Counted from the stretch's first letter, positions 1,657 through 22,678 are shown. The stretch: DNA of 24,000 nt from Candidatus Calditenuis fumarioli (GCA_030059665.1 JANVYR010000001.1:313368-337367), one strand, 5' to 3'. A program made the numbers and translations. The notes: a model not told the origin generated them from the letters alone.

Positions 1657-2943
1657 TCACTCGAACTCCTTCTGAGGGTTGATCTTGCTGAAGACTGCCC
1701 TCATCCTGCTGAGGTCGAGGCCCCGGGAGAGGAGAATTCCCTCCACCTCCTCCACGAACTCCCTCCCGATGCCTCGGGGCAGCGAGATCAGCTCGTCCAC
1801 GAGGTCCAGGGCCAGGGGAAGGCCAGTTGCGGGGTTGGCGGTCTCGAACGCGTAGGTCACCGCGAGTTCGACCGTCTCGGCATCGACGCCCTTCGGGAAC
1901 TCGATGCAGACCGGCGGCTGGTCCGGCACGGTCCTGAGGAAGACGCGCTTCGTCGAGAGGACGGTTTCGAGAATCCTTGCCTTTCTCTCCTCCGGCTCAT
2001 CCGTCCCGCGATGGAGGAGGTCCGTGACGATCTGGTTGCTGACCCGCCTCCAGGATTCTTTGTACAGTTCATTCACGTTCACCTCCTTTCCCCTCCTACG
2101 CCGCTCGTGGATCATGCCCGAGAGCGCCGATAAGACCTCCGGTGGGTTCTCTGGACCCAGAAGCTCGCTCATGTCCAGGACCTGGCCGACCTCCATCGCA
2201 AGCGTCAGGATCGACCTGTCCGTGAGACCAGTCGTCAATTCCGCGTTGCCGGTGCGGTGCGCGACGTAGCCGTCGATGGCCGAGGTGGCAACCCTCTTCA
2301 CGACCCCGAAGGCCCTGCCCGACTGGAGGAGTTTCTCCGTCATCCTCACCAGCTCGTCGATCAGCTGATGCGTTTCGCGGAAGGTCTTCTGCGTGACGGG
2401 ATCGGTCCAGTTCAGCTCGAGGTGCTTGACCCTGCTGCACCCTGCCCTGAACCCCCAGAAGGAGCCGTCGATGACCACGTAGTCGACTCTTTTGTCCTCG
2501 AGGGCCTTGACGGCGTAGAGCCTCTCCAGGTACGTCGTGACCAGGTCTAGGGTCTTGGCGAAGTCCTCTCGGGAGGTGTGATGGGTGCCCCTGAGGGCGT
2601 CGCCGACGTACCACTCGGCCTCCGGGATCTGCCCGATGCCCCTGAAGTCCTTACGGCACGCGGCCACCAGCCCAAGCCTCAGGCCTATCCTCTCGTCGAT
2701 GGAGGGCGTGTCGGAACCGTCCACGACGGCGAAGACCTTATCCCTCCACTCGGGCCTTTCGGCGCCATCGGCGCGAGACCTCAGCAGCGGCACCAGGAGC
2801 TCGAAGGCCCTCCGGATCGGTTCGCTGACGACCGACAGCTCGCTTAGTATCCTCTCGGCCTCCTTCTTCGCCAGCTCGAAGTAGGCCTCCTGTAGGGGTC
2901 GCGGTATCCTCAGGATCTCCGGGATCTCCTCCTCAGCCTCCAC
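1657..2943 (-). CDS. nurA: NurA-family 5'-3' nuclease
   Basis: 428 aa with the NurA-type catalytic aspartate motifs VFAVVDGSD and DYVVIDGSFWGF. GTG start at 2943 overlaps the herA stop by 11 nt, giving operon coupling with a HerA ATPase, the canonical partner. Confidence 0.8.
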   Translation of the reverse strand: MEAEEEIPEILRIPRPLQEAYFELAKKEAERILSELSVVSEPIRRAFELLVPLLRSRADGAERPEWRDKVFAVVDGSDTPSIDERIGLRLGLVAACRKDFRGIGQIPEAEWYVGDALRGTHHTSREDFAKTLDLVTTYLERLYAVKALEDKRVDYVVIDGSFWGFRAGCSRVKHLELNWTDPVTQKTFRETHQLIDELVRMTEKLLQSGRAFGVVKRVATSAIDGYVAHRTGNAELTTGLTDRSILTLAMEVGQVLDMSELLGPENPPEVLSALSGMIHERRRRGKEVNVNELYKESWRRVSNQIVTDLLHRGTDEPEERKARILETVLSTKRVFLRTVPDQPPVCIEFPKGVDAETVELAVTYAFETANPATGLPLALDLVDELISLPRGIGREFVEEVEGILLSRGLDLSRMRAVFSKINPQKEFE

Positions 2944-4450
2944 CCCATCCCACCCTCTCGTGCTCCGGTATCTCGAAGGTCATCAGGAGCGGAACCGGTG
3001 ACGGGTTGACCTTCCCCACGATGTAGAAGTGACCCTCCGGCAGCCTCAGCAGGCTGTCGCTGGTGACGAAGGAGTTGGCGAAGTACCTCTCGGCCTCCGG
3101 CGCGTCGAGCGGGTGGATCCTTCCGATGAAGAGCGTGTTGAGGTTCCTCCGGACGGCCGCGTTGATCCCTATCTCGCCTGCTATGCCCTGGGAGACCAGC
3201 GTCAGGGAGAGCTTGTACGACCTTCCCAGCGCAGCGAGCTCGATCAGGGTCTTCGTCGTCTTCTCCTCGAGACCCCTGGGCTGCCACGGACAGTACTGCG
3301 GTGCCTCGTCGATCAGCAGGGCTATCCTCAGCTCGTTCTTCTCCTCCATCAGCCGCTTGAGGTACCTGGTCAGGGAGAGGAAGACGGAGAGCTTCTGCTC
3401 CTTCGAGCCGTAGGAGAGGTCCATCACCAGCACGCCCTTCTCCCTCAACAGCTGTATGATTTCGCTCGGCTTCATCGTTCCCATCAGGGGCTTCAGATCA
3501 TCGGGCGAGAGCCTCTCGAACGCGCGCATCGCCTTCCGCTGGTAGATGTAACCCCATCTGCCCAGCTTCCCGGTCGGCTCGAGGTTGTCCTCCTTGATTA
3601 CGTCGAGGAGGTTGTAGAGCAGCCTCTCTTTCGTCTCCGTCGCAGTCCTACCGCGCCATTCCGACGTCGAAATCACCTCCTCTAGGTAGCTCACCATGCG
3701 CATGCCGGAGTCGCCGCCTCCGAAGTATCCCAGAGCCTCCGCGAGGTAGGAGACGACGGCGCTGTCGTCGAGCTCCACATCGCCCATGCTGATCACGTTA
3801 TCGGGGTAGTACGGCGCGTAGTCGCTCCCCTTCCAGTCCAGCACGAGGACGTCGTACCCGTACTCCCTCAGAAGTGGTATCAGCTGGTACCTGCATAGGA
3901 ACGACTTGCCCGAACCGGTCACGCCGAAGACGCCTATGTGGTGTGATAGGTAATCGGCCATCAGCGGTATCGTCCAGCTCTTGTGACCCTTCGCGTAGTA
4001 CCCGACGGTGAACCTGGACCTGTACAGGAAGTTCATGGGGTTGAGGCGCTCGTTGAACCGGTAGACAGGAGAGCCGGGTGCAATGATCATCGTGTTCTGC
4101 TTGACGGTTCCGTCGGTCACGTCACCTATCACCACCAGCCTGAAGCCGAAGTACTCCTTCGAGCTGCTGGGTCCGTGACCCCTCTTGGCGTAGGCGATGC
4201 CGGGCGTGTATGCGGAGGTCCTGAGGGCGTCGTTGTACCCGAACCCTCCCCTGCAGACCGCGAGTATCTTGTTCCCTGCCCTGTTGTCGATCAGCACGAG
4301 CGTCTCGTTGGTGACGGTCCCCTCCTTCCCCTCCTGGAGGACCATGATGGCGCTGTTCTCCGTGGACTGGCTCGCTATCACGCCGATCTGCTCGAGCGAC
4401 TTAGTCCAGCTGCTCCAGTCGATCCCCTCCTCTCCACCCATCCGCACCAT
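2933..4450 (-). CDS. herA: HerA-type hexameric DNA translocase/helicase (DUF87 ATPase)
   Basis: 505 aa. Has an N-terminal HAS-barrel-like region, Walker A GVFGVTGSGKS and Walker B IALLIDEAPQY, and is coupled to nurA. ATG 4441 (MGGEEG) is an alternative start that fits the TATA spacing better. Confidence 0.85.
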   Translation of the reverse strand: MVRMGGEEGIDWSSWTKSLEQIGVIASQSTENSAIMVLQEGKEGTVTNETLVLIDNRAGNKILAVCRGGFGYNDALRTSAYTPGIAYAKRGHGPSSSKEYFGFRLVVIGDVTDGTVKQNTMIIAPGSPVYRFNERLNPMNFLYRSRFTVGYYAKGHKSWTIPLMADYLSHHIGVFGVTGSGKSFLCRYQLIPLLREYGYDVLVLDWKGSDYAPYYPDNVISMGDVELDDSAVVSYLAEALGYFGGGDSGMRMVSYLEEVISTSEWRGRTATETKERLLYNLLDVIKEDNLEPTGKLGRWGYIYQRKAMRAFERLSPDDLKPLMGTMKPSEIIQLLREKGVLVMDLSYGSKEQKLSVFLSLTRYLKRLMEEKNELRIALLIDEAPQYCPWQPRGLEEKTTKTLIELAALGRSYKLSLTLVSQGIAGEIGINAAVRRNLNTLFIGRIHPLDAPEAERYFANSFVTSDSLLRLPEGHFYIVGKVNPSPVPLLMTFEIPEHERVGWGGG

Positions 4451-14422: not shown

Positions 14423-14635
14423 GTCGGGCTCCGGCCCCCTTCACTCCGTGGGCTGGCTCGGGGCACGGTAATCGCCCCGACTCCCTTCGACGGGAGGACA
14501 AGTAGGGGAAAGAAAGGGGGTGAGGTTGCGCTTGCATCGATCATCAGCTGGAGTCTTCATCCTCGGCTTTGAGCGTCGGTGGCCACCGGCCCGGACTCTC
14601 CCGGTCGGAGGGACGCGGGCTTGGCGAGCTGGGGG

Positions 14636-16225
14636 TTATTCGCCCCAGCCTGCGACCGTCGTGTCCCTCCTTGTCAGTGGGGTCACCTTCATTACCCACC
14701 CCGGCCTAGACCACCCTGAGCGGGTGGGGTGGTCTGGCTCGGGGCGGGTTCGGGTGTCCCCGCCTCCGCGCCAAGCCTGTTCTTCATCCCCACCCTCTCG
14801 GGGTCCAGGCCGGGGCTTCGTCTTCGAGTATTGCAGCGGATTCCTGATCCCCTTAGGACACAGCTTACCGTCCTCTATGCAGAGTCCGTGGGCCTTCATC
14901 GTCTGGCAAGAGGGCGGTTTGTATTTTATCCGAGATCCCCTCTCGCCGGCGATATGCTCTATCTGGTACCTGGCTATCTTCTCGTCGAAGTCAGGCCTCT
15001 CCTGTAGCATCGCCAATATGTCCTCCTTGGAGTACCCACGGTTTATCATGAAGGCCGTTATCGAGAACAGCTCCGCATGCGATGCCTCAGAAATCCTCGC
15101 CCTTATCGCCTTCATGCACGGCGGCCAGTCCTCGCTCGTCGTCTCCGTCGTCTCAACGTACCGGCTTCTTACCCTTATCAGCTCTTTGAGTGTGTCCTCC
15201 GCGGCCTCACGGAGAACGTCGGGTAGTAAATTAATCTTCGGCCTTACTCCCTCGAATCTGGCGAACGCCTCGGCGATCCTCTCCCTCGCCAGCCGGGCCA
15301 GCTCCGCCTTCGTGAGATGAACATAGCCTCTGTGCACCGTCCGGTTTACGAGGCGCCACTCGGGGTTCCGCAAAAGGTTCCTCGCGGCCGTCAAGTAGTC
15401 AGCCAGCGGAACCTTGTAGTCGTAGCCCTCGATCTCCGAGGGCTCGGCGTCCAGTTTCGTCCTCCTTATCAGTTCCCTGAACGTCTCCTCGTCCTCGGCC
15501 AGCATCTGCCGCTCTATTCGGGAGGCCTCGGCGAGCGCCCAGCGCTTCAGCAACCAATCGTCGTTAATAGCTAAGCAGATCACCTTTGCGACGATGAAGC
15601 TCAGCGCCTCGGTAAGGGGATCGTCCAGAGACTGGACGATCCCCCGCTCCCCGCGTTGTAACGCGTCGATTAACCTCTCTTTTGCTCTTGTCGCTGTCGC
15701 CTCGTCGACGTCGGCGACGTTCCAGGCTTCGATTAATTGGCGGTATTCGTCCAAATATTGGAATTTGCTGAGCGTTTGAAGGGTGATAACTAGACCCCTC
15801 GGTTTAACCGTCTCCTGCCGCGCTTCCTTTTCTTCCTTTTGCGCTACCTCTTCGGACTTCGACGCTAACAGCTTTCGTCTCAAAATCTCGATCGCCTCGT
15901 CGTCCAGCTCCGCTAGGACCTGCTCGACCTTCTGCCTTCTCATCTCTTCAAACTCCTCCTCGTTCGGTTCTCTCGGCCTATCCCATCGATACATGGGATA
16001 GGCCCGTTTGAAGCTCTCCAGAAGCTCGTCGTAGGTCAGCGACGGGTCGTAGTGACCCAACCAGTCGATCTCTAGTGGGTCGGCGCGGGGGTTGAACTCC
16101 ATGAAACGCCTTATCAATGCCCTCAGCGTTACGTAGTCCGACTTGCCGTACCTGTCGTAGATCTGTCTGTGGACTCTCTTCGTGACCTCCTCAAGGATTT
16201 CCTCATCGACCGTCATCCGAACCAC
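14636..16225 (-). CDS. PriL-like DNA primase large subunit with an N-terminal extension of about 160 aa
   Basis: The C-terminal Fe-S domain is unmistakable: DWPPCMKAI, SHAELFSITAFMINRGYSKEDILAMLQERPDFDEKIARYQIEHIAGERGSRIKYKPPSCQTMKAHGLCIEDGKLCPKGIRNPLQY (4 Cys). The PriL helical N-domain is also present (ALSFIVAKVICLAINDDWLLKRWALAEASR). Residues 1-160 and the ~65-aa GC-rich tail have no recognisable homology. Confidence 0.75.
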   Translation of the reverse strand: MVRMTVDEEILEEVTKRVHRQIYDRYGKSDYVTLRALIRRFMEFNPRADPLEIDWLGHYDPSLTYDELLESFKRAYPMYRWDRPREPNEEEFEEMRRQKVEQVLAELDDEAIEILRRKLLASKSEEVAQKEEKEARQETVKPRGLVITLQTLSKFQYLDEYRQLIEAWNVADVDEATATRAKERLIDALQRGERGIVQSLDDPLTEALSFIVAKVICLAINDDWLLKRWALAEASRIERQMLAEDEETFRELIRRTKLDAEPSEIEGYDYKVPLADYLTAARNLLRNPEWRLVNRTVHRGYVHLTKAELARLARERIAEAFARFEGVRPKINLLPDVLREAAEDTLKELIRVRSRYVETTETTSEDWPPCMKAIRARISEASHAELFSITAFMINRGYSKEDILAMLQERPDFDEKIARYQIEHIAGERGSRIKYKPPSCQTMKAHGLCIEDGKLCPKGIRNPLQYSKTKPRPGPREGGDEEQAWRGGGDTRTRPEPDHPTRSGWSRPGWVMKVTPLTRRDTTVAGWGE

Positions 16226-16367
16226 CTCTCGAGGAGCATCGGTACGTCAGTAACCGCTACCGTCCCCTCCACCCTCTCCCGGAACCCTCGCGGCCCCTCC
16301 TCCGGGCTCTCGCCCGGGCCCCTCGCCCAAAGGGCGGGGTATGTACCCACCACGGGGTAAATCGGGG

Positions 16368-18053
16368 CTATCGCGGCAGGAGAGGGAGGAGCTTCCGGTA
16401 GCGATCATCCACGAGGAGAACCAGAGCGTTATCTTCGGGACCCCTGATCGCCCTCCCGGCGGCCTGAACCGCGGAGTAGACCGCAGGGAGGACGAGGCCG
16501 TGGAGCCTCGCAGAATCCTCGTCCCCTAACAGCTCCTTCAGTCTCCTCAGCAGCTTCTCCCTCCTCGGCGTGGGTGCGGCGAAAGGCACCCCTATCAGCA
16601 GCACGAGCTCAGCAGATAGGTCAATCCCTTCGGCGAGCCTGCCGTTGAAGACGCTGACCAGCGCTTTGGAGTCCATCTCGAAGGCTCTGGCGACCGCTTC
16701 AACCTCCTCCTGCGTCATACCTTGCTTCTCGGCCAGGACCTCTGCCTCGGCCCTTTTCAGCACCTCCTCGAGGACCTCGTGGCTCGGCAGGAAGACGAGG
16801 GACCTCCTCCCTGCTACGAGCTTCAGCAGCCAGGCGGCGTCCGAGTAGAGCTTCTCGTCCCGTTTCTCGAACTTCGTCGTCAAACCCTTCACCACGGCCG
16901 CGCTCAGGTTGTCTCCGAATGGCCATCCGGCCCTCAGCAACGTCATCTCCCGGCCTACCAGCCTTTCCAGAAGCTCCGCGTTGACCGTCGCGCTCATCGT
17001 GACCGTCGCCCTCCACTTGTCGTAGACGGCCTCGAGCACTTCTTTGGGGTCAGCCATAGCCTCCAGCCTCAGGGACCTCCCCTCCCTCACCAGTAGGGGT
17101 CTGGAGCCCCCGAGGCTCGCCTTGAAGTCGGCTACCGTAAGCACATGGCTCGCCGGAGCGAGGTTCTCCCTAAGCTTAAGCTCCTGTATCTCGAAGCCCG
17201 CCTCTCGGAGCTCCGTGTAAGACGGTAATACGTCATCGACCTCCGCTTCGCCGTCTCCGGGAAGCAATGACTCGTAGTGGTTGGCGGCCCTCTCAAGCTC
17301 TGATGAGATCTCGTTAAACCCGTACTTCCTTGCCTCCCTTGCCGCCCGCTTCAGCGTCCTCAGACTGATGGAGTCCTTGACCATCGACAGCGCCTCACTG
17401 ACAACGTGCTGTGCCTCGTCCAGAACCAGTATCGTCCTCTCCTTCGACCAGCGCCATTTGGCCAGAAGCCATCCGAGGAATCCGAGTTGCCTGTGGGTAG
17501 CGACCAACCCCCGTGCGGTCGGCATCGAGATAGTGAGTACCTCATAGGGGCACGTCAACGTCCTCCGTCCCAAGTCCTTGAGTTCGCTGACCGTCATCGG
17601 CCTCCCCACCGCCCGAGGTTTCCCGGGCCAGTAGGGGCATCTGTGGGCGTATCTGGTCGCCCTGCACGCGGCGTTGAACCGTCTCTGATCTATTTGGGCT
17701 ATTACCTCGTGAAGACACAGTAGCTTCCTCCCGAAGAGCGGCAGCATGCCGGTTTCCAGCGAGACATGTCTAACTTGCGAAGCAGTCCTCGTAAGCCAAA
17801 GCACCCTCAGATTGTTCTCCTCCGCGTACTTGGCTACGGCGGCGTAGACCGCGGCGGTCTTACCCAGACCGGTGGGCGCCTCGACGACCACGTCCCTGTT
17901 GCCGTCGCTCAGCAGTTCGTAGAGCCTGTTGGCGAGGTCGGCTTGGTATTTCCTCGTCGTCGGATGCGGGAAGTGCCTCTTCAACGCAGCCGTCAGCTGG
18001 ACGTCCTCTTCGAGGTCAACCACCCTGACCTTCCCCGGCTGGGGGATAGACAC
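16368..18053 (-). CDS. XPD/Rad3 (DinG-family) SF2 helicase with a 4Fe-4S domain
   Basis: Motifs: FPHPTTRKYQ, motif I VEAPTGLGKT, a four-Cys cluster (LLCLHE, AACRATRYAHRCPYW, LTCPYE), motif II VLDEAQH, MSATV, RLAEGIDL and motif VI VQAAGRAIRG. The start is GTG. Confidence 0.8.
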   Translation of the reverse strand: MSIPQPGKVRVVDLEEDVQLTAALKRHFPHPTTRKYQADLANRLYELLSDGNRDVVVEAPTGLGKTAAVYAAVAKYAEENNLRVLWLTRTASQVRHVSLETGMLPLFGRKLLCLHEVIAQIDQRRFNAACRATRYAHRCPYWPGKPRAVGRPMTVSELKDLGRRTLTCPYEVLTISMPTARGLVATHRQLGFLGWLLAKWRWSKERTILVLDEAQHVVSEALSMVKDSISLRTLKRAAREARKYGFNEISSELERAANHYESLLPGDGEAEVDDVLPSYTELREAGFEIQELKLRENLAPASHVLTVADFKASLGGSRPLLVREGRSLRLEAMADPKEVLEAVYDKWRATVTMSATVNAELLERLVGREMTLLRAGWPFGDNLSAAVVKGLTTKFEKRDEKLYSDAAWLLKLVAGRRSLVFLPSHEVLEEVLKRAEAEVLAEKQGMTQEEVEAVARAFEMDSKALVSVFNGRLAEGIDLSAELVLLIGVPFAAPTPRREKLLRRLKELLGDEDSARLHGLVLPAVYSAVQAAGRAIRGPEDNALVLLVDDRYRKLLPLLPR

Positions 18054-18056
18054 AGG

Positions 18057-18076
18057 GCAGGGGCCTTAGCCCCTGC
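18057..18076. other. perfect 8-bp hairpin (GCAGGGGC-CTTA-GCCCCTGC) abutting the helicase start codon
   Basis: Read directly from the sequence. It ends 3 nt from GTG 18053 in the minus-strand sense. A second hairpin, CCCCTCC-AAA-GGAGGG, lies at 18094-18108. Confidence 0.45.
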
Positions 18077-18142
18077 TAGCCCACTCGGCGCTCCCCTCCA
18101 AAGGAGGGTGCGTTTATCCCGCCAGCCTATGGGGGTCTCACC

Positions 18143-18385
18143 TCACAGGTATCCGAAAATCTTTAGCAGTATCGCGCTGATCAACGTCGTCACCCACAGC
18201 CAGAAATAGCGATCTATCCGCGACTCGAGCCTTTCGAACCTCCTGTCTATGTTCTCCAGTATCTTCCTGTGCTCCTCGACGATCACCTCGAGCTTTGCGA
18301 TCCTCTCAGCCAACTCCATCACCATTCGTGTAAGCTCCTCCGGCGTTAATGGGTCTCCGGCCTGATTTATCTCTTCTGACCTCAC
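18143..18385 (-). CDS. tail-anchored coiled-coil protein, unknown function
   Basis: 80 aa. A heptad-like helix (LTRMVMELAERIAKLEVIVEEHRKILENIDRRFERLESRI) is followed by the C-terminal TM segment YFWLWVTTLISAILLKIFGYL. The start overlaps the upstream gene stop (ATGA at 18382-18385). Confidence 0.5.
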   Translation of the reverse strand: MRSEEINQAGDPLTPEELTRMVMELAERIAKLEVIVEEHRKILENIDRRFERLESRIDRYFWLWVTTLISAILLKIFGYL

Positions 18386-19113
18386 CTGCCATCACCCCTG
18401 TGAGACTCGTAGTGCTTCTTCAGCTCCTCCTCAGAGGGGCAGAGGAGGCCGCAGCTGGGGCAGAAGTAACCCTGTCCCGTGCTGACGACCTCCCCCACCC
18501 CCCGGAGGAATGTCCACTCCCATCTGCATGACGCCGGATGCTTCTCAGCGACGTGCGCCGTTGCTTCAGCTAGGGTCCCGAACCCTGCCCCGCAGTAGGG
18601 GCAGAGCCAGGACCCGTCCTTGTTCTCGAAGAACGTCTTCAGCTCCCCCACCCAGGCCACCTTGACCCGGGCGGGGGTGGTCTCGTCAACGTCGGCCGGG
18701 TGCCTCCCTCCCAGCCAGCCCCGTCTTATGACGACGGGGCGGGCCGAAAGGGAGTACCTCTCCAGAACGTCGGCACACCCTTTGCAGAGGGGCCCTGCGT
18801 ATGAGGGCAGGGCCGCGGGAGCCCCGCACCTCGCGCAGAACCCCTCTACCCTTTTCGATTCGGCGGGTACCTCATCGACCTTTGGCTTGCACTCCGCCTG
18901 CTTCAGCTTCAGGGCCTCCGTGAGCTTGGCCGACGCTCCGCAGCGTGTGCATCGTAGCATGCTGATCGCCTCGCCCGGCACAACCACTTCTTCGACCTCG
19001 TGCTCCCCGAGGGGGAAGGTCCTGTGCCTCTCTCCCTCAGGGGTTTCGACTTGTTCCTTTTGCACCTTCGTCTCCTCTTCCTCGAACCTTTCCTCTTCCT
19101 CCTCGAGCCCCAA
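18382..19113 (-). CDS. multi-zinc-finger protein (two C2H2 fingers plus CxxC ribbons)
   Basis: The C2H2 fingers are CPYCGAGFGTLAEATAHVAEKH and CPSCGLLCPSEEELKKHYESH. The CxxC pairs are CTRCG, CARCG and CKGC. The N-terminus is acidic. The start (TTG 19113) is uncertain. Confidence 0.6.
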   Translation of the reverse strand: MGLEEEEERFEEEETKVQKEQVETPEGERHRTFPLGEHEVEEVVVPGEAISMLRCTRCGASAKLTEALKLKQAECKPKVDEVPAESKRVEGFCARCGAPAALPSYAGPLCKGCADVLERYSLSARPVVIRRGWLGGRHPADVDETTPARVKVAWVGELKTFFENKDGSWLCPYCGAGFGTLAEATAHVAEKHPASCRWEWTFLRGVGEVVSTGQGYFCPSCGLLCPSEEELKKHYESHRGDGR

Positions 19114-19220
19114 CCCCTCGACCCCCTGCTCAGGGGCCTCGGAGAGGGGCTCCTCGGACTCGACGTCCTCCTCCAGTCTCAGCTCGACCCTCCCGGGGCC
19201 TGCCTCCGACCGCCGCTCGA

Positions 19221-20909
19221 TTACACGAAAACCCCTCCCCCTCTCGCGGCGATCAGGGCAGACCCTTTCGGGGTCTCCTCTTCGACCTTCTCAGCCTCCT
19301 CAACAGTCACCTCCTCTCCCTCTTCGGTCTCCTCCTCGACAGTCATCTCAGCCCCCTCCTCGGCTTTCCCCCACGGAAGGCGCCACGGGATTGGCCACGT
19401 CCCCGTTGCCGTGCGGACCAATAGTAGTGACGCCGTCCCGCGGCTGGGGGCCTCGGAGGGAGTGGTTGGAGTGCTGACATCGGCTTCCTCTTCGAAGTCT
19501 TCGTCTTCCTCCAGCTTCAGCTCCACGGAGCCTGTAGGCTCCGGGGGCTGGGCGGGCTCCCCACCTTTTTCAGCCTCCTCGACCCGCCCCTCGACCTCAA
19601 CCCCCTCCGGCAGGGAGGGGGTGGGGGTCTCTGGAGCGGACACCTCTCCCTCCTCGACCTCCTCACCTTGCTCCTCAGCCCTTACTTCCTCAGTTACTGT
19701 TGGCTTCGTGAGCATAAGCTTGATCGGCTTAGGTTTCGGTAATCGTCTTAGATGGAGTCTGCGGTGATCGTAGATGATAAGCTTCGCCTTAATCAGCTTC
19801 TTCCACATCTTCTCCGCCTCCTCGAGGCTCGCCCTGAAGAGGAACCTCTCTAGGACGAACCTCGGGAGGCTGTCGGGGGAAGTGACGACGATAGCTCCCA
19901 CGTCTTTCGTTATTGCTATCGGCATCAGCTCGGGATCGGGGCATATTAGAACCACCCCGACCCCAAAACCTCTCAACTCATAGACGATCCGCTCTCCTAC
20001 CGTCGGTGGTTCGTCAGGAGTTCTCGGCCTGATGTAGTTCTGCGCCTCCTCAGCAACTATCAACTCTCCCAGCCTCGCCTTTAGCCCCCCTTTCAGCGCG
20101 TCCTTGTACTTCCTCACTAGGATCGCGATCGCATATGCAGACTTCAGGTATACTGAGGGGAGTTGGCTGAGGTCGTAGACGACGACGGAGTCGCTTCCTC
20201 TGACGTTCACCGCAGGCCTCTCCTCGTCTATCAGCAACACGTAAAGCCTCCGGATAAGCGCCAGGTACATGTTGGCTTCAGCGTATCTCCTTTCGATGCT
20301 CGCGAGGTCGGCGGCCCTCGTCAGCTCGCGTATTACTTCGGACGTCGTCGGAATCCCCTTCTCGTAGAGTTTGACCATGGTCCTCAGCAGAAGCGTCGCG
20401 CTCGCCGGCGACACCTCCGCCACGTCTTTGCTCATCTCGCGTATCATCTCCACGGCGTAAAGCGCCTTCTCCTCCGCAGTTTCTCCGGGGACGTCCCAGA
20501 TATTGATCTTCCTTACCACAGACGCTCCCTTGAGGTAGGAAACGTACTCGCCCTTCCAGTCGATGACCGTCATTTTGATCCCCTTTTTGACCGCCTTAGC
20601 AATTACCTCCTTCGCAACCGTGGTCTTCCCCGACCCCGTCGGCCCCAGCACGACCATGTGTCGTGCCAAGGCCGACAGGGGCACCACCCCCAGCACCCTC
20701 CTAGCCCTCAATGCCCGGAGGAAGAGGAGGGCAGGGGTGATGGTCGTTATCGCCGCGATCGCTGCGATTGTTGCGATTGGTACTACATTGACCCTCGGCA
20801 GTAGCTCGGGTACCCCTTGGACGATTCCGTACTTCGCCCAGTCCCTCATACCCTCCTGTACCACGTGCAGGAGGGCAAGGGGAACGTCTATCTCGTAGAC
20901 GGCGACCAC
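19221..20909 (-). CDS. membrane-anchored HerA/VirB4/FtsK-superfamily ATPase with a ~160-aa acidic low-complexity tail
   Basis: N-terminal TM segment VVPIATIAAIAAITTITPALLFL. Walker A is VLGPTGSGKT (20622-20645). The Walker B-like motif is ELIVAEEAQNY, in a DUF87/AAA_10-like body. The tail (19221-19709) is Glu/Val/Pro/Thr-rich and contains TWPIPWRLPWGK. ATG 20849, preceded by AGGAGG, is a likely alternative start. Confidence 0.75.
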   Translation of the reverse strand: MVAVYEIDVPLALLHVVQEGMRDWAKYGIVQGVPELLPRVNVVPIATIAAIAAITTITPALLFLRALRARRVLGVVPLSALARHMVVLGPTGSGKTTVAKEVIAKAVKKGIKMTVIDWKGEYVSYLKGASVVRKINIWDVPGETAEEKALYAVEMIREMSKDVAEVSPASATLLLRTMVKLYEKGIPTTSEVIRELTRAADLASIERRYAEANMYLALIRRLYVLLIDEERPAVNVRGSDSVVVYDLSQLPSVYLKSAYAIAILVRKYKDALKGGLKARLGELIVAEEAQNYIRPRTPDEPPTVGERIVYELRGFGVGVVLICPDPELMPIAITKDVGAIVVTSPDSLPRFVLERFLFRASLEEAEKMWKKLIKAKLIIYDHRRLHLRRLPKPKPIKLMLTKPTVTEEVRAEEQGEEVEEGEVSAPETPTPSLPEGVEVEGRVEEAEKGGEPAQPPEPTGSVELKLEEDEDFEEEADVSTPTTPSEAPSRGTASLLLVRTATGTWPIPWRLPWGKAEEGAEMTVEEETEEGEEVTVEEAEKVEEETPKGSALIAARGGGVFV

Positions 20910-20999
20910 CTCCGTTACATACCCAGCCTCGGCTACTACAGGATACCGGAAATCGACGTCCCGCTCGATTACCTGCTATCGAGGATAAAGGGTAGCGGG

Positions 21000-21602
21000 A
21001 TGGATACGGAGAGCATCGACCACGTCTATGATTATTTCGGCAACAGGAGGATCCTGATCGAGGTCCCGGAGGAGGAGATAGAGAGGGAGATGGAGCAGAA
21101 CAGGCTCAGGAAAGAATGGGAAGCCAAGATCGCCGAAAGACTCCAGAAGTGCACGCTCCTCTGGCAAAGCGATAAGGTGCGGGCCTACCTGCTCGACGAC
21201 GAGGAGCTCGCCGGGGTGTTTTTAGATGCGGTAAGCGTTCAGATGGTGAAGGATCTGGGCAGACTCATCGTTATCGCCGGGCCATATTTTGACGAGCCAT
21301 ACAGGGTCGCCTCCCTGAGCATCCATATGCCGACCAAGGTCCTCGCCGCGAAATCTTTGCTTGAGAGGAGAGGAGTTCCGGGAACTCTCACGGTAAAGAA
21401 CGAGGGGGTGCCGGGACCGAAATACCTGATCAGGCTTACCTTTAGACACCTCGACCCGCTCGGATACTGCACGCTCTACCTCGATCCGGACAAGAAATGC
21501 GTAGAGATGGCACCCAAGGCGAGGGTCATCTACGAGGACGGGAAGCTCGTGCTGATAGACGACGAAGCGGTGGAGGAGCTGATGAGGGAGAGGGGAGCTT
21601 AG
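21000..21602 (+). CDS. hypothetical protein (ORFan)
   Basis: ATG 21000 (MDTESIDHVYDYF...) is chosen over the track start at 20817, which would overlap the divergent ATPase gene. The composition is protein-like and no motif was recognised. Confidence 0.45.
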   Translation: MDTESIDHVYDYFGNRRILIEVPEEEIEREMEQNRLRKEWEAKIAERLQKCTLLWQSDKVRAYLLDDEELAGVFLDAVSVQMVKDLGRLIVIAGPYFDEPYRVASLSIHMPTKVLAAKSLLERRGVPGTLTVKNEGVPGPKYLIRLTFRHLDPLGYCTLYLDPDKKCVEMAPKARVIYEDGKLVLIDDEAVEELMRERGA

Positions 21603-21612
21603 GCCCAGCCCG

Positions 21613-21620
21613 TATTTATT
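21613..21620 (+). promoter_or_regulatory. TATA-like box (TATTTATT) for the PCNA-like gene
   Basis: Centred about 26 nt upstream of GTG 21642 / ATG 21645, implying a leaderless mRNA. Confidence 0.4.
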
Positions 21621-21641
21621 CCTCGTTTCAGTTTTTATTTC

Positions 21642-22445
21642 GTGATGATCCGCCTACCTGTCCAGTACTGGAGATTCTTGATCAGGTCATTTCTCGACGA
21701 AGGCGCAGACCGCGTCTTTTATGATCAGGGCAGGCTCCAATCCCTCAGCGTAGACAGAGTCTCCCTGATCAGAGCTTCTATCCACGACCATGACTGTGGC
21801 CGTATGGAACTCGACCTCGACAAGCCGAACGAACTGCTGAAGAAGGCCCGTGTTAAAAGAGGCTATATGACGGTAAGGAGGATCGGCGAAGGTAAGGAAG
21901 AGGAGGAGGTAGAGGTAAGGATAACGGGAGACCAATGCCTGACGACAACGTTCAAATATAAGAGAGAGGTCGGGTCATCTTTCAATCCCGACGTCACGAG
22001 GTTGAACTTTACAGACGGATTCAGGATAGGAGCTGAGGCTTTAGCCCGCACATGCGAGGGCTTGAAGGACTGTGATATCATGTTTTTATATGTGGGGTCT
22101 AAGCTGTTTGTGGGAGGCAGACTGTTTGAAAGCCAACTAAGGTTCACCACGATCCCCACCGTTGCAGGTAACGGCTCGTTCTCGGCATTTGAGCCAAGCA
22201 GGTTGTGCAGGTTCTTGAGGAGGATAAGCGAGTTCTCCAGCGTCCTAACCGTCAGGCTCAAGACGGACGGCCCCATCTACATCCACGCTCCGACACCGTA
22301 TTTCGACGTCGAGTTTATGCAGGCCCCGCGTGCCATCGCTTCCGACGACGTCAAGCTCCTGAAGGAGGTTCTAATTCAGGAAGGGGAGGCTCAGGCTATA
22401 CCCGTCCTTGAGCAGTTGGTGGAGGCTAAACCACAGACCGGATGA
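21642..22445 (+). CDS. divergent PCNA-like sliding-clamp protein
   Basis: Length and collinear pattern resemble archaeal PCNA. The N-terminus has ..FLIRSFLDEGADRVFYDQGRLQSLSVDRVSLIRASI. Mid-protein has LDLDKPNELLKKARVKRGYMTVRRIGE. The C-terminal VLTVRLKTDGPIYIHAPTPYFDVEFMQAPRA matches the PCNA ...fG.d.Pl.l.y....g.l.f.lAPR ending. It carries an extra ~40-aa tail. This is pattern recognition only. Confidence 0.45.
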   Translation: MMIRLPVQYWRFLIRSFLDEGADRVFYDQGRLQSLSVDRVSLIRASIHDHDCGRMELDLDKPNELLKKARVKRGYMTVRRIGEGKEEEEVEVRITGDQCLTTTFKYKREVGSSFNPDVTRLNFTDGFRIGAEALARTCEGLKDCDIMFLYVGSKLFVGGRLFESQLRFTTIPTVAGNGSFSAFEPSRLCRFLRRISEFSSVLTVRLKTDGPIYIHAPTPYFDVEFMQAPRAIASDDVKLLKEVLIQEGEAQAIPVLEQLVEAKPQTG

Positions 22446-22678
22446 TGGGTTTTTACAGGCTCAGGGTTCGCATGGATCTGATCGGAGAGGCCCGGGACTC
22501 ACCCGTCGCACCCGGAACGGCAGGAAACGGTCAAGTCTATGACCAATCTCAAAAATGTTTACCGGGTGAGGAAGGATGAGGGGCTTCAGGACTTGGATCC
22601 GATTGAAACGAGAACGGGTGCCTCCTCGACCCCTTCTGCGGAAGCGCCACCATCCCCATCGAGACAGCGCTCTACGCG

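Follow-up and report, generated by a model that had tools for sequence, protein, structure and literature searches.

A primase large-subunit paralogue and an XPD-type helicase form the core of an integrated element in Candidatus Calditenuis fumarioli and probably borrow the catalytic primase subunit of the host

How can an integrated genetic element have its DNA copied when it encodes only the non-catalytic half of a primase? This question is raised by a locus of Candidatus Calditenuis fumarioli, a member of the Caldarchaeales (former Aigarchaeota). Known solutions of mobile elements are a primase of their own, in which an archaeo-eukaryotic primase (AEP) is fused to a helicase, and the capture of entire replication proteins from the host, for example MCM. 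The stretch of DNA analyzed here, referred to as the window, comprises 24,000 nucleotides (GCA_030059665.1, JANVYR010000001.1:313368-337367) and originates from a genome of 1.57 Mb on 3 contigs that is 91% complete. Two genes at positions 14636 to 18053 are the subject of this study: a paralogue of the primase large subunit PriL, designated PriLx (529 aa; 14636..16225, minus strand), and an XPD/Rad3-type superfamily 2 (SF2) helicase with an iron-sulfur (Fe-S) domain, designated XPDx (561 aa; 16368..18053, minus strand). The position of the PriL gene directly downstream of the helicase gene, as described in the first-pass annotation, was confirmed; the operon assumed there is likely, given that both genes are located on the same strand and only 142 bp apart. 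For copying the DNA of the element, this conserved gene pair probably relies on the catalytic subunit of the host. We consider the chances slightly better than even that XPDx and PriLx constitute a module for DNA synthesis, composed of a helicase and a primase adaptor, that uses the PriS of the host.

The first-pass annotation described PriLx as a complete PriL homologue with a helical N-terminal domain (NTD) together with a domain at the C-terminus (CTD) containing four cysteines. This was borne out by sequence profiles, by the structural model and by the invariance of the cysteines. Pfam family PF04104 matched residues 270-450 (E 9e-28; 97.8 bits compared to a cut-off of 22.4), and homologues of PriLx are annotated with PF26466 (DNA_primase_lrg_N) in addition to PF04104. 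A profile search of the PDB with a family of 86 members aligned residues 177-477 to the full-length PriL of S. solfataricus (5of3_B, E 1e-21). With the AlphaFold2 (AF2) model (mean predicted local distance difference test score, pLDDT, 82) as query, all significant Foldseek matches in the PDB were PriL chains, and both domains were matched. The helical NTD (residues ~149-357; 15155..15781, minus strand), which is the PriS-binding domain in canonical PriL, matched the NTDs of 1zt2, 5ofn and 2dla. The Fe-S-type CTD (residues ~365-470; 14816..15133, minus strand) matched 5of3 and 3lgb and could be aligned to the CTD of the S. solfataricus PriL and to the eukaryotic p58C; its cysteines C370, C440, C449 and C456 are invariant across the 86 homologues. 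The last ~55 residues of PriLx are disordered, are encoded in a GC-rich spacer and are missing from the homologues, which are ~480-495 aa long. The NCBIfam PriL profiles covered residues ~152-478 with 194.9 bits, far below the equivalog cut-off of 439, and PriLx is therefore a diverged paralogue rather than the housekeeping orthologue.

The resident orthologue is found elsewhere in the genome. A six-frame search, of the kind proposed in the first-pass annotation, revealed two PriL loci, one priS and one XPD-like (DEAD_2/Helicase_C_2) locus. The canonical host priL is an ORF of 352 codons located ~500 kb away, the single priS lies ~11 kb past the right end of the window and no second XPD-like gene was present. 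That PriLx and XPDx could be nothing but the host's own priL and xpd in a low-GC patch had been considered in the first-pass annotation, and the fact that XPDx is the sole XPD-like gene of the genome might be taken in favor of it. Its solitary status, however, reflects the absence of XPD from most of the host lineage and does not mark it as a host gene: most Caldarchaeales genomes searched were devoid of XPD, while one genus encodes a distinct XPD of ~620 aa with 32% identity to XPDx. Together with the second priL, the patchy distribution of the pair and the absence of the whole region from congeners, this refutes the housekeeping explanation, to which we assign practically no probability.

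The boundaries of the insertion were apparent from the closest congener (G002). In this genome, the genes for an EMG1/NEP1 methyltransferase and a SerK/ParB-like protein are ~160 bp apart, and the same two genes flank the insertion in the window. The G002 locus matched only positions 8948-10487 and 22811-23999 of the window in blastn searches. Window positions 10488..22810 (no strand assigned) are therefore a 12.3-kb insertion relative to the congeneric genome, comprising an integrated element and a scar zone at its left end. The GC content of the insertion is 0.591, compared to 0.632 and 0.618 in the flanks. A viral origin was considered and gained no support, as relatives of PriLx were absent from the IMG/VR search and terminal overlaps were absent on whole short contigs; circular contigs were not found among the related elements. 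The best explanation is that the element belongs to a family of small integrative elements of the Caldarchaeales (Aigarchaeota).

The distribution of the long PriL form is in line with this explanation. Canonical PriL (~360-375 aa) was found in all of 40 relatives except G013, the genome of which is 82% complete, while the long form occurred in few of them and in only ~9-10 of 76 Caldarchaeales genomes. At least 300 PriLx-type homologues with lengths of ~480-500 aa were retrieved in database searches, the majority of them from metagenomes of hot springs. The gene order in G012, G021, G024 and G030 is membrane ATPase, zinc-finger protein, XPD-like helicase and long PriL, followed by a homologue of the ORF at 11570-12433 of the window. 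On all seven further contigs from metagenomes or metagenome-assembled genomes, the XPD-like gene was located immediately upstream of the PriL gene, with a small cysteine-rich ORF in between on two of them, while the other genes varied. The two genes were neighbors in all related elements and metagenome contigs whose flanking sequence sufficed for the comparison. The XPDx-PriLx pair is thus the invariant core of the related elements, and the initial proposal that PriLx is element-encoded is supported by the second canonical priL, the empty site of the congener, the patchy but linked distribution and the conserved synteny. The small ORFs between the two genes (L090 and L093) were inspected as possible split-off N-terminal extensions of PriL, to which they showed no similarity.

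Two further arrangements of PriL-like genes were observed. At L022:5344-8638 (G031), a gene for a HerA-type ATPase is directly followed by a PriL-like gene of ~403 codons lacking most of the N-terminal extension described below, and no XPD-like gene is located between them. The element of G024, which resides on a single contig of 1,680,938 bp, encodes a protein of 707 aa 1.3 kb downstream of the long PriL gene (L021:6739-8862, minus strand). Its first ~320 residues form hydrophobic membrane segments, for which reason the protein was rejected as a PriS-PriL fusion. These segments are followed by a region similar to the PriL NTD (33% identity to residues 147-351 of PriLx) and a helical tail without the cysteine cluster. 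Anchored in the membrane, this protein might act as a tether or decoy of the PriL-NTD type.

PriLx derives from the PriL of Caldarchaeales hosts. PriLx and the resident host PriL share 44% identity over 304 aa and have nearly identical C-terminal motifs. When 90 PriL sequences were placed in a tree by maximum likelihood, 31 of the 32 element copies formed one clade (support of 100 in the Shimodaira-Hasegawa-like approximate likelihood ratio test, SH-aLRT), which was nested within the PriL clade of the Caldarchaeales (96), apart from PriL of the other orders of the phylum. Of the sites with a conservation of 90% or more among canonical PriL of the Caldarchaeales, the element clade has kept the same residue at 19 of 26 in the NTD (73%) and at 34 of 43 in the CTD (79%); hence, both domains of PriLx are still under PriL-like constraint. 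The long PriL of G012 (L018:9218-10687, minus strand; L096:1-760) is a mosaic of an element-type extension, which is 37% identical to that of the window, and a host-like body, which groups with the canonical PriL of its own genus (100). This body is 56% identical to the canonical PriL of G012, compared to 36% for the window copy. As the extension was kept and the body is host-like, the PriL body was re-captured from the host or recombined with the host gene, and such a replacement would be expected if PriLx has to fit partners from the host.

No catalytic subunit was detected alongside PriLx. Screening of the element ORFs with Pfam, NCBIfam, PHROGs and PADLOC profiles, including Pfam searches up to E 5 for six unannotated ORFs, gave no AEP match, which agrees with the first-pass annotation. 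PF01896 matched only the host priS outside the window in the six-frame search of the genome, and PF09250 (Prim-Pol) matched nowhere in the genome. AEP families of Pfam were likewise not found on the seven other contigs carrying the pair, and one PriS locus each was present in the carriers G012, G016, G021, G024 and G058.

A highly diverged AEP might nevertheless be hidden in the element, with the ORFs at 20817-21602 and 21642-22445 or the zinc-finger protein (18382-19113) as conceivable sources of catalysis. The two ORFs lack any annotation, and a VDGD motif is found near the N-terminus encoded by ORF 20817-21602. This motif, however, is not conserved and is located outside the part shared with the few homologues (aa 60-245), which makes the ORF unlikely as an AEP; its homologues in G021 and G030 are not linked to PriLx, and PDB and Pfam searches with it returned nothing. 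Both ORFs are absent from all other related elements examined, and the zinc-finger protein is filled by its four zinc motifs. Neither ORF 20817-21602 nor ORF 18382-19113, both named (the former as 21000-21602) as places to look for an AEP fold in the first-pass annotation, matched an AEP profile. On sequence grounds, a cryptic AEP in the element appears unlikely, because a catalytic partner that is required should be conserved like the pair itself, and nothing else is. That such a protein supplies the catalysis is a faint prospect in our estimation.

The most distinctive part of PriLx is its N-terminal extension (residues 1-145; 15791..16225, minus strand). The first-pass annotation had noticed an extension of ~160 aa and considered it unique; the extension is real, with a length of ~145 aa, and it is conserved in the family of at least 300 members. 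In the AF2 model, residues 8-80 form a domain of four helices (pLDDT ~95 for residues 10-80), followed by a less confidently predicted helical hairpin and a disordered linker, and no strands are present. Nine residues of the extension are invariant in the family (N45, P46, D49, D54, W55, E67, Y76, P77 and W81). Neither the PDB (best E 1.5) nor the viral structures of BFVD (best E 0.84) contained a significant Foldseek match to the extension. An AEP core is alpha/beta, and the strand-free model cannot represent one. The suggestion that the extension supplies catalysis is rejected at the level of the predicted fold, which appears to be an all-helical, non-catalytic orphan. A PriX-like domain was rejected as well, given the all-alpha model and the lack of significant Foldseek matches.

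A word-based search with the extension alone found only the extension itself, and a scan of genome contigs with the same query gave no match. An exhaustive search of 1.8 billion representative sequences retrieved the extension domain in only 53 proteins. Its core of ~60 aa was also found in metagenomic proteins of other types, namely a protein-primed family B polymerase (pPolB), ParB-like proteins, a DnaJ protein and an AAA ATPase. Among 76 Caldarchaeales genomes, nine encode the core, each time within a long-type PriL gene. The extension is read as a docking domain common to proteins of related elements.

XPDx was assigned to the XPD/Rad3 type by profiles, motifs, comparison with the Thermoplasma XPD (TaXPD) and phylogeny. 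It exceeded the Pfam cut-offs for PF06733 (DEAD_2; 33.4 bits) and PF13307 (Helicase_C_2; 75.8 bits), and TaXPD 4a15 was the best solved relative (E 2.5e-35), with alignment of the cysteines of the Fe-S insertion. The motifs GLGKT (Walker A), DEAQH and QAAGRAIR (motif VI) are present, and a four-cysteine Fe-S domain (C113, C129, C139 and C168) is inserted in helicase domain 1; three of these cysteines align to cluster cysteines of TaXPD in phmmer. With TIGR00604 (rad3), XPDx scored 100.7 bits compared to a cut-off of 247. Residues ~253-329 could not be aligned to TaXPD, and the counterpart of the Arch domain appears to be shorter. In the phylogenetic tree, XPDx is part of an element-specific clade (SH-aLRT 100) with 22-28% identity to the cellular XPDs of the phylum, and close homologues (47-64% identity) are confined to genomes which carry the same element or contain it partly assembled. 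The two phylogenies that the first-pass annotation had proposed gave different pictures for the two genes, PriLx being nested in the host lineage and XPDx standing in a clade of its own, and the helicase has had a history different from that of PriLx.

The helicase also bears on the possibility that the pair is a defense, anti-defense or repair module unrelated to priming, consisting of a DinG/XPD-type effector and a partner with an Fe-S domain that binds DNA ends. The PADLOC model of the DinG associated with type IV-A CRISPR systems (PDLC01439) matched XPDx over its full length (E 2.5e-59), and genes for Mrr, PLD, AAA_15 or HerA proteins are found near the pair on some contigs. This model, however, is a general DinG/XPD profile; TIGR03117 (cas_csf4) scored 27.6 bits compared to a cut-off of 400. 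PADLOC identified no Cas proteins among the element ORFs, and a repeat search of positions 10500-23300 revealed no CRISPR-like array, only repeats of acidic codons. Moreover, no cas or other defense partner is conserved beside the pair, which is located within an insertion and accompanied by a recombinase-like gene. We regard a defense or repair function as quite improbable.

The gene of the window and five others are continuous, but the XPD-like genes of five related elements contain an insert located exactly between the codons for K and T in the Walker A GKT. The interruptions are located at L019:7250-7640 and L020:7250-7640 (G021 and G030), L018:12200-12620 on the minus strand (G012), L095:2720-3120 (G017) and L029 near 8480-8560. 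Four different intervening sequences of 61, 84, 88 and 88 nt were found; three of these are not multiples of three and the one of 84 nt contains an in-frame stop codon, and the reading frames are intact on either side. The ends of the intervening sequences can pair (AGGC...GCCTCCTAY; TGG...CCTGYCAK), as can the flanking exons in L020. The inserts look like archaeal introns of the endonuclease type, with a motif resembling a bulge-helix-bulge, in a protein gene of a mobile element; manual fitting did not yield a strict bulge-helix-bulge geometry.

How the two proteins might act together can be outlined as follows. PriLx would bind the single PriS of the host via its retained NTD, giving rise to a hybrid primase dedicated to the element, and its Fe-S domain would contribute to initiation, the role it has in canonical PriL. 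Through the extension, the hybrid enzyme would be linked to a partner from the element, most plausibly XPDx, otherwise another element protein or a DNA site. XPDx (5'-3') would open the element duplex along the strand that receives the primers, in a manner similar to bacterial and phage helicase-primase pairs, and a possible task of the zinc-finger protein is to label the origin. Where an element also encodes the membrane ATPase and the small membrane protein, this module could in addition prime DNA that is being transferred into or out of the cell. A more far-reaching version, which we hold tentatively and at somewhat less than even odds, describes a hijack at the level of a single subunit: a captured and re-tooled PriL would team up with the host PriS and, by a newly acquired docking domain, couple it to an XPD-type 5'-3' replicative helicase. 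This would be an archaeal primosome made of eukaryote-type parts and built like a bacterial or phage helicase-primase, the PriL body of which can be captured again while the docking domain is kept.

Several points weigh against a module that operates with the host PriS. Divergence of PriLx does not generally follow that of the host PriL; in hosts of genus g7, the two share only ~33-34% identity. The compatibility of PriLx with the PriS of each host is assumed; PriS proteins share 43-52% identity across host families. The ORFs at 20817-21602, 21642-22445 and 18382-19113 were screened for an AEP by sequence profiles only. Furthermore, XPD-family helicases are, to our knowledge, known for roles in repair and transcription and as accessory proteins of type IV CRISPR systems, not as replicative helicases.

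PriLx retains a domain of the PriS-binding type, which would also suit a decoy that sequesters the host PriS or competes with the host PriL, thereby slowing chromosome replication or blocking rival elements without forming a productive primase. The second, membrane-anchored PriL-NTD-like protein of G024 lacks the cysteine cluster and resembles such a tether or decoy. In PriLx, by contrast, conservation of the Fe-S domain, whose role is in initiation rather than in PriS binding, equals that of the NTD, and none of the four cysteines varies. A decoy would furthermore leave the strict pairing with a helicase unexplained, and we consider it improbable.

Processing of transferred DNA has more to recommend it, and is still an unlikely alternative to the helicase and primase-adaptor module. 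Here, the pair would not be a vegetative replication module but would serve an apparatus similar to Ced, Ted or conjugation systems, with XPDx unwinding DNA for export or import and PriLx priming the complementary strand together with the PriS of the recipient. The bacterial plasmid primases Sog and TraC provide an analogy for the priming of transferred DNA. In most elements, the pair is accompanied by a membrane-anchored ATPase of the HerA/FtsK type and by a small two-helix membrane protein, and the G024 element additionally encodes the multi-transmembrane protein with the PriL-NTD-like domain. The ATPase of the window (19221..20909, minus strand) matched PF01935 and weakly resembles CedD (NCBIfam, E 2e-23) and CedB, the membrane ATPases of DNA import (PMC11823120, PMC11868833). 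Its scores, however, are far under the cut-offs (83 bits compared to 600 for CedD; 22 bits compared to 700 for CedB), and the ATPase gene is missing from L090, L091 and L093 despite an upstream flank of 7-10 kb, so that it is not obligatory. The small membrane protein (14084..14371, minus strand), encoded downstream of PriLx, has homologues in 12 of 21 related loci; its designation as a pilin rests on a faint TrbC/VirB2 match (E 0.27). No CedA-like or VirB6-like polytopic channel protein was identified in the element.

Several known systems resemble the XPDx-PriLx pair in part. The two-domain architecture, the four cysteines, the CTD motifs and the branching within the PriL of the host lineage are shared with the cellular PriS-PriL primases (S. 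solfataricus PriSL and PriSLX; 1zt2, 5of3). Unlike the subunit of these enzymes, PriLx is a second copy, borne by an element without a cognate PriS, carries an additional helical domain of ~145 aa and stays far below the NCBIfam equivalog cut-offs. As in the PrimPol/AEP-helicase proteins of other archaeal and bacterial elements (ORF904 of pRN1, AEP-PriCT-S3H proteins and PolpTN2), a primase-related part adjoins a helicase as a replication module of an element; in contrast, the pair is devoid of an AEP domain, contains a full-length PriL instead of a PriCT remnant, and combines it with an SF2 helicase of the XPD type and not with an SF3 or MCM helicase. PriL is nearly exclusive to chromosomal primases, while related PriCT domains are found in AEPs of elements (Kazlauskas et al. 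2018, PMC5862659). The PriCT domains and the C-terminus of PolpTN2 are related to PriL (PMC5862659, PMC3973330), and PolpTN2 is a PriS-PriL fusion (PMC3973330).

Archaeal elements frequently take up replication proteins of their hosts, with MCM as an example, according to a survey of integrated elements (Krupovic et al. 2019, PMC6563490). In the cases of MCM, Cdc6/Orc1, PCNA and PolB, a captured replisome gene evolves as an element lineage and is presumed to recruit host machinery, which is similar to the situation of PriLx. Here, however, the regulatory one of an enzyme's two subunits has been captured, implying a subunit swap with the host catalytic subunit. The archaeal XPDs (Thermoplasma Ta0057, Sulfolobus) and DinG/Csf4 share with XPDx the SF2 core and the Fe-S domain with four cysteines between Walker A and B, but XPDx belongs to an element-restricted clade, has an apparently shorter Arch-corresponding region and is not accompanied by TFIIH-like or Cas partners. 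The resemblance to the Ced/Ted DNA import systems is confined to the membrane-anchored HerA/VirB4-like ATPase and the small two-helix membrane protein of many elements, with the differences in scores, channel protein and ATPase distribution described above.

No description of a stand-alone PriL carried by an element together with an XPD helicase, or of the capture of such a subunit, was found in the full-text literature searched. Primase or XPD genes are not mentioned for Ced loci in PMC11823120 and PMC11868833. The survey of integrated elements (PMC6563490) includes Ca. Caldiarchaeum subterraneum; PriL and XPD are never mentioned in it, and only CalSub-E1, with primpol, PriCT-1 and S3H genes, and the provirus CalSub-Pro are named for this organism in the passages considered. 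Integrase-based surveys appear to have missed this element family. An element with only the non-catalytic half of a primase and a repair-type Fe-S helicase would represent a different strategy, in which a host enzyme is reprogrammed by a swap of its regulatory subunit. If this is true, the pair offers a natural system for studying the contribution of PriL to primer initiation and helicase coupling, assigns a replicative role to an XPD-family helicase and provides a marker gene pair for an undescribed, widespread family of elements of hot-spring archaea, given the number of homologues in public data.

Several other genes of the element recur in its relatives. The gene directly upstream of XPDx (18143..18385, minus strand) encodes a small coiled-coil protein that has a hydrophobic helix at its C-terminus and had tblastn matches in the same position in L018, L090, L092, L095 and L136. 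It is preceded by the gene of the zinc-finger protein (243 aa; 18382..19113, minus strand), for which weak zf-C2H2 and zinc-ribbon matches were obtained. Two zinc ribbons and two C2H2 fingers make up this protein, which has homologues in most related elements and is a candidate DNA-binding factor with a function at the origin or in regulation. The ORF at 11570..12433 (minus strand) is a candidate recombinase accompanying the module; it has no Pfam match, and homologues with 28-57% identity are located downstream of PriLx in L019, L020, L023, L024, L028, L091, L093, L135 and L137. For the 267-aa product of ORF 21642-22445 (plus strand), no match to PCNA was obtained with Pfam up to E 5, PHROGs or a PDB sequence search.

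Long acidic tails rich in Glu and Asp, with regularly spaced Trp or Phe residues, were observed in the product of a zinc-ribbon ORF (12744-13424, minus strand) and at the C-terminus of the membrane ATPase (19221-19709, minus strand), and the sequences encoding them are the main direct-repeat families of the element. Left of the insertion, the chromosomal DNA of the host contains a tandem of a HerA (DUF87) gene and a gene with weak similarity to NurA (window positions 1657-4450, minus strand); this host HerA gene is distinct from the gene for the membrane-anchored HerA-type ATPase of the element.

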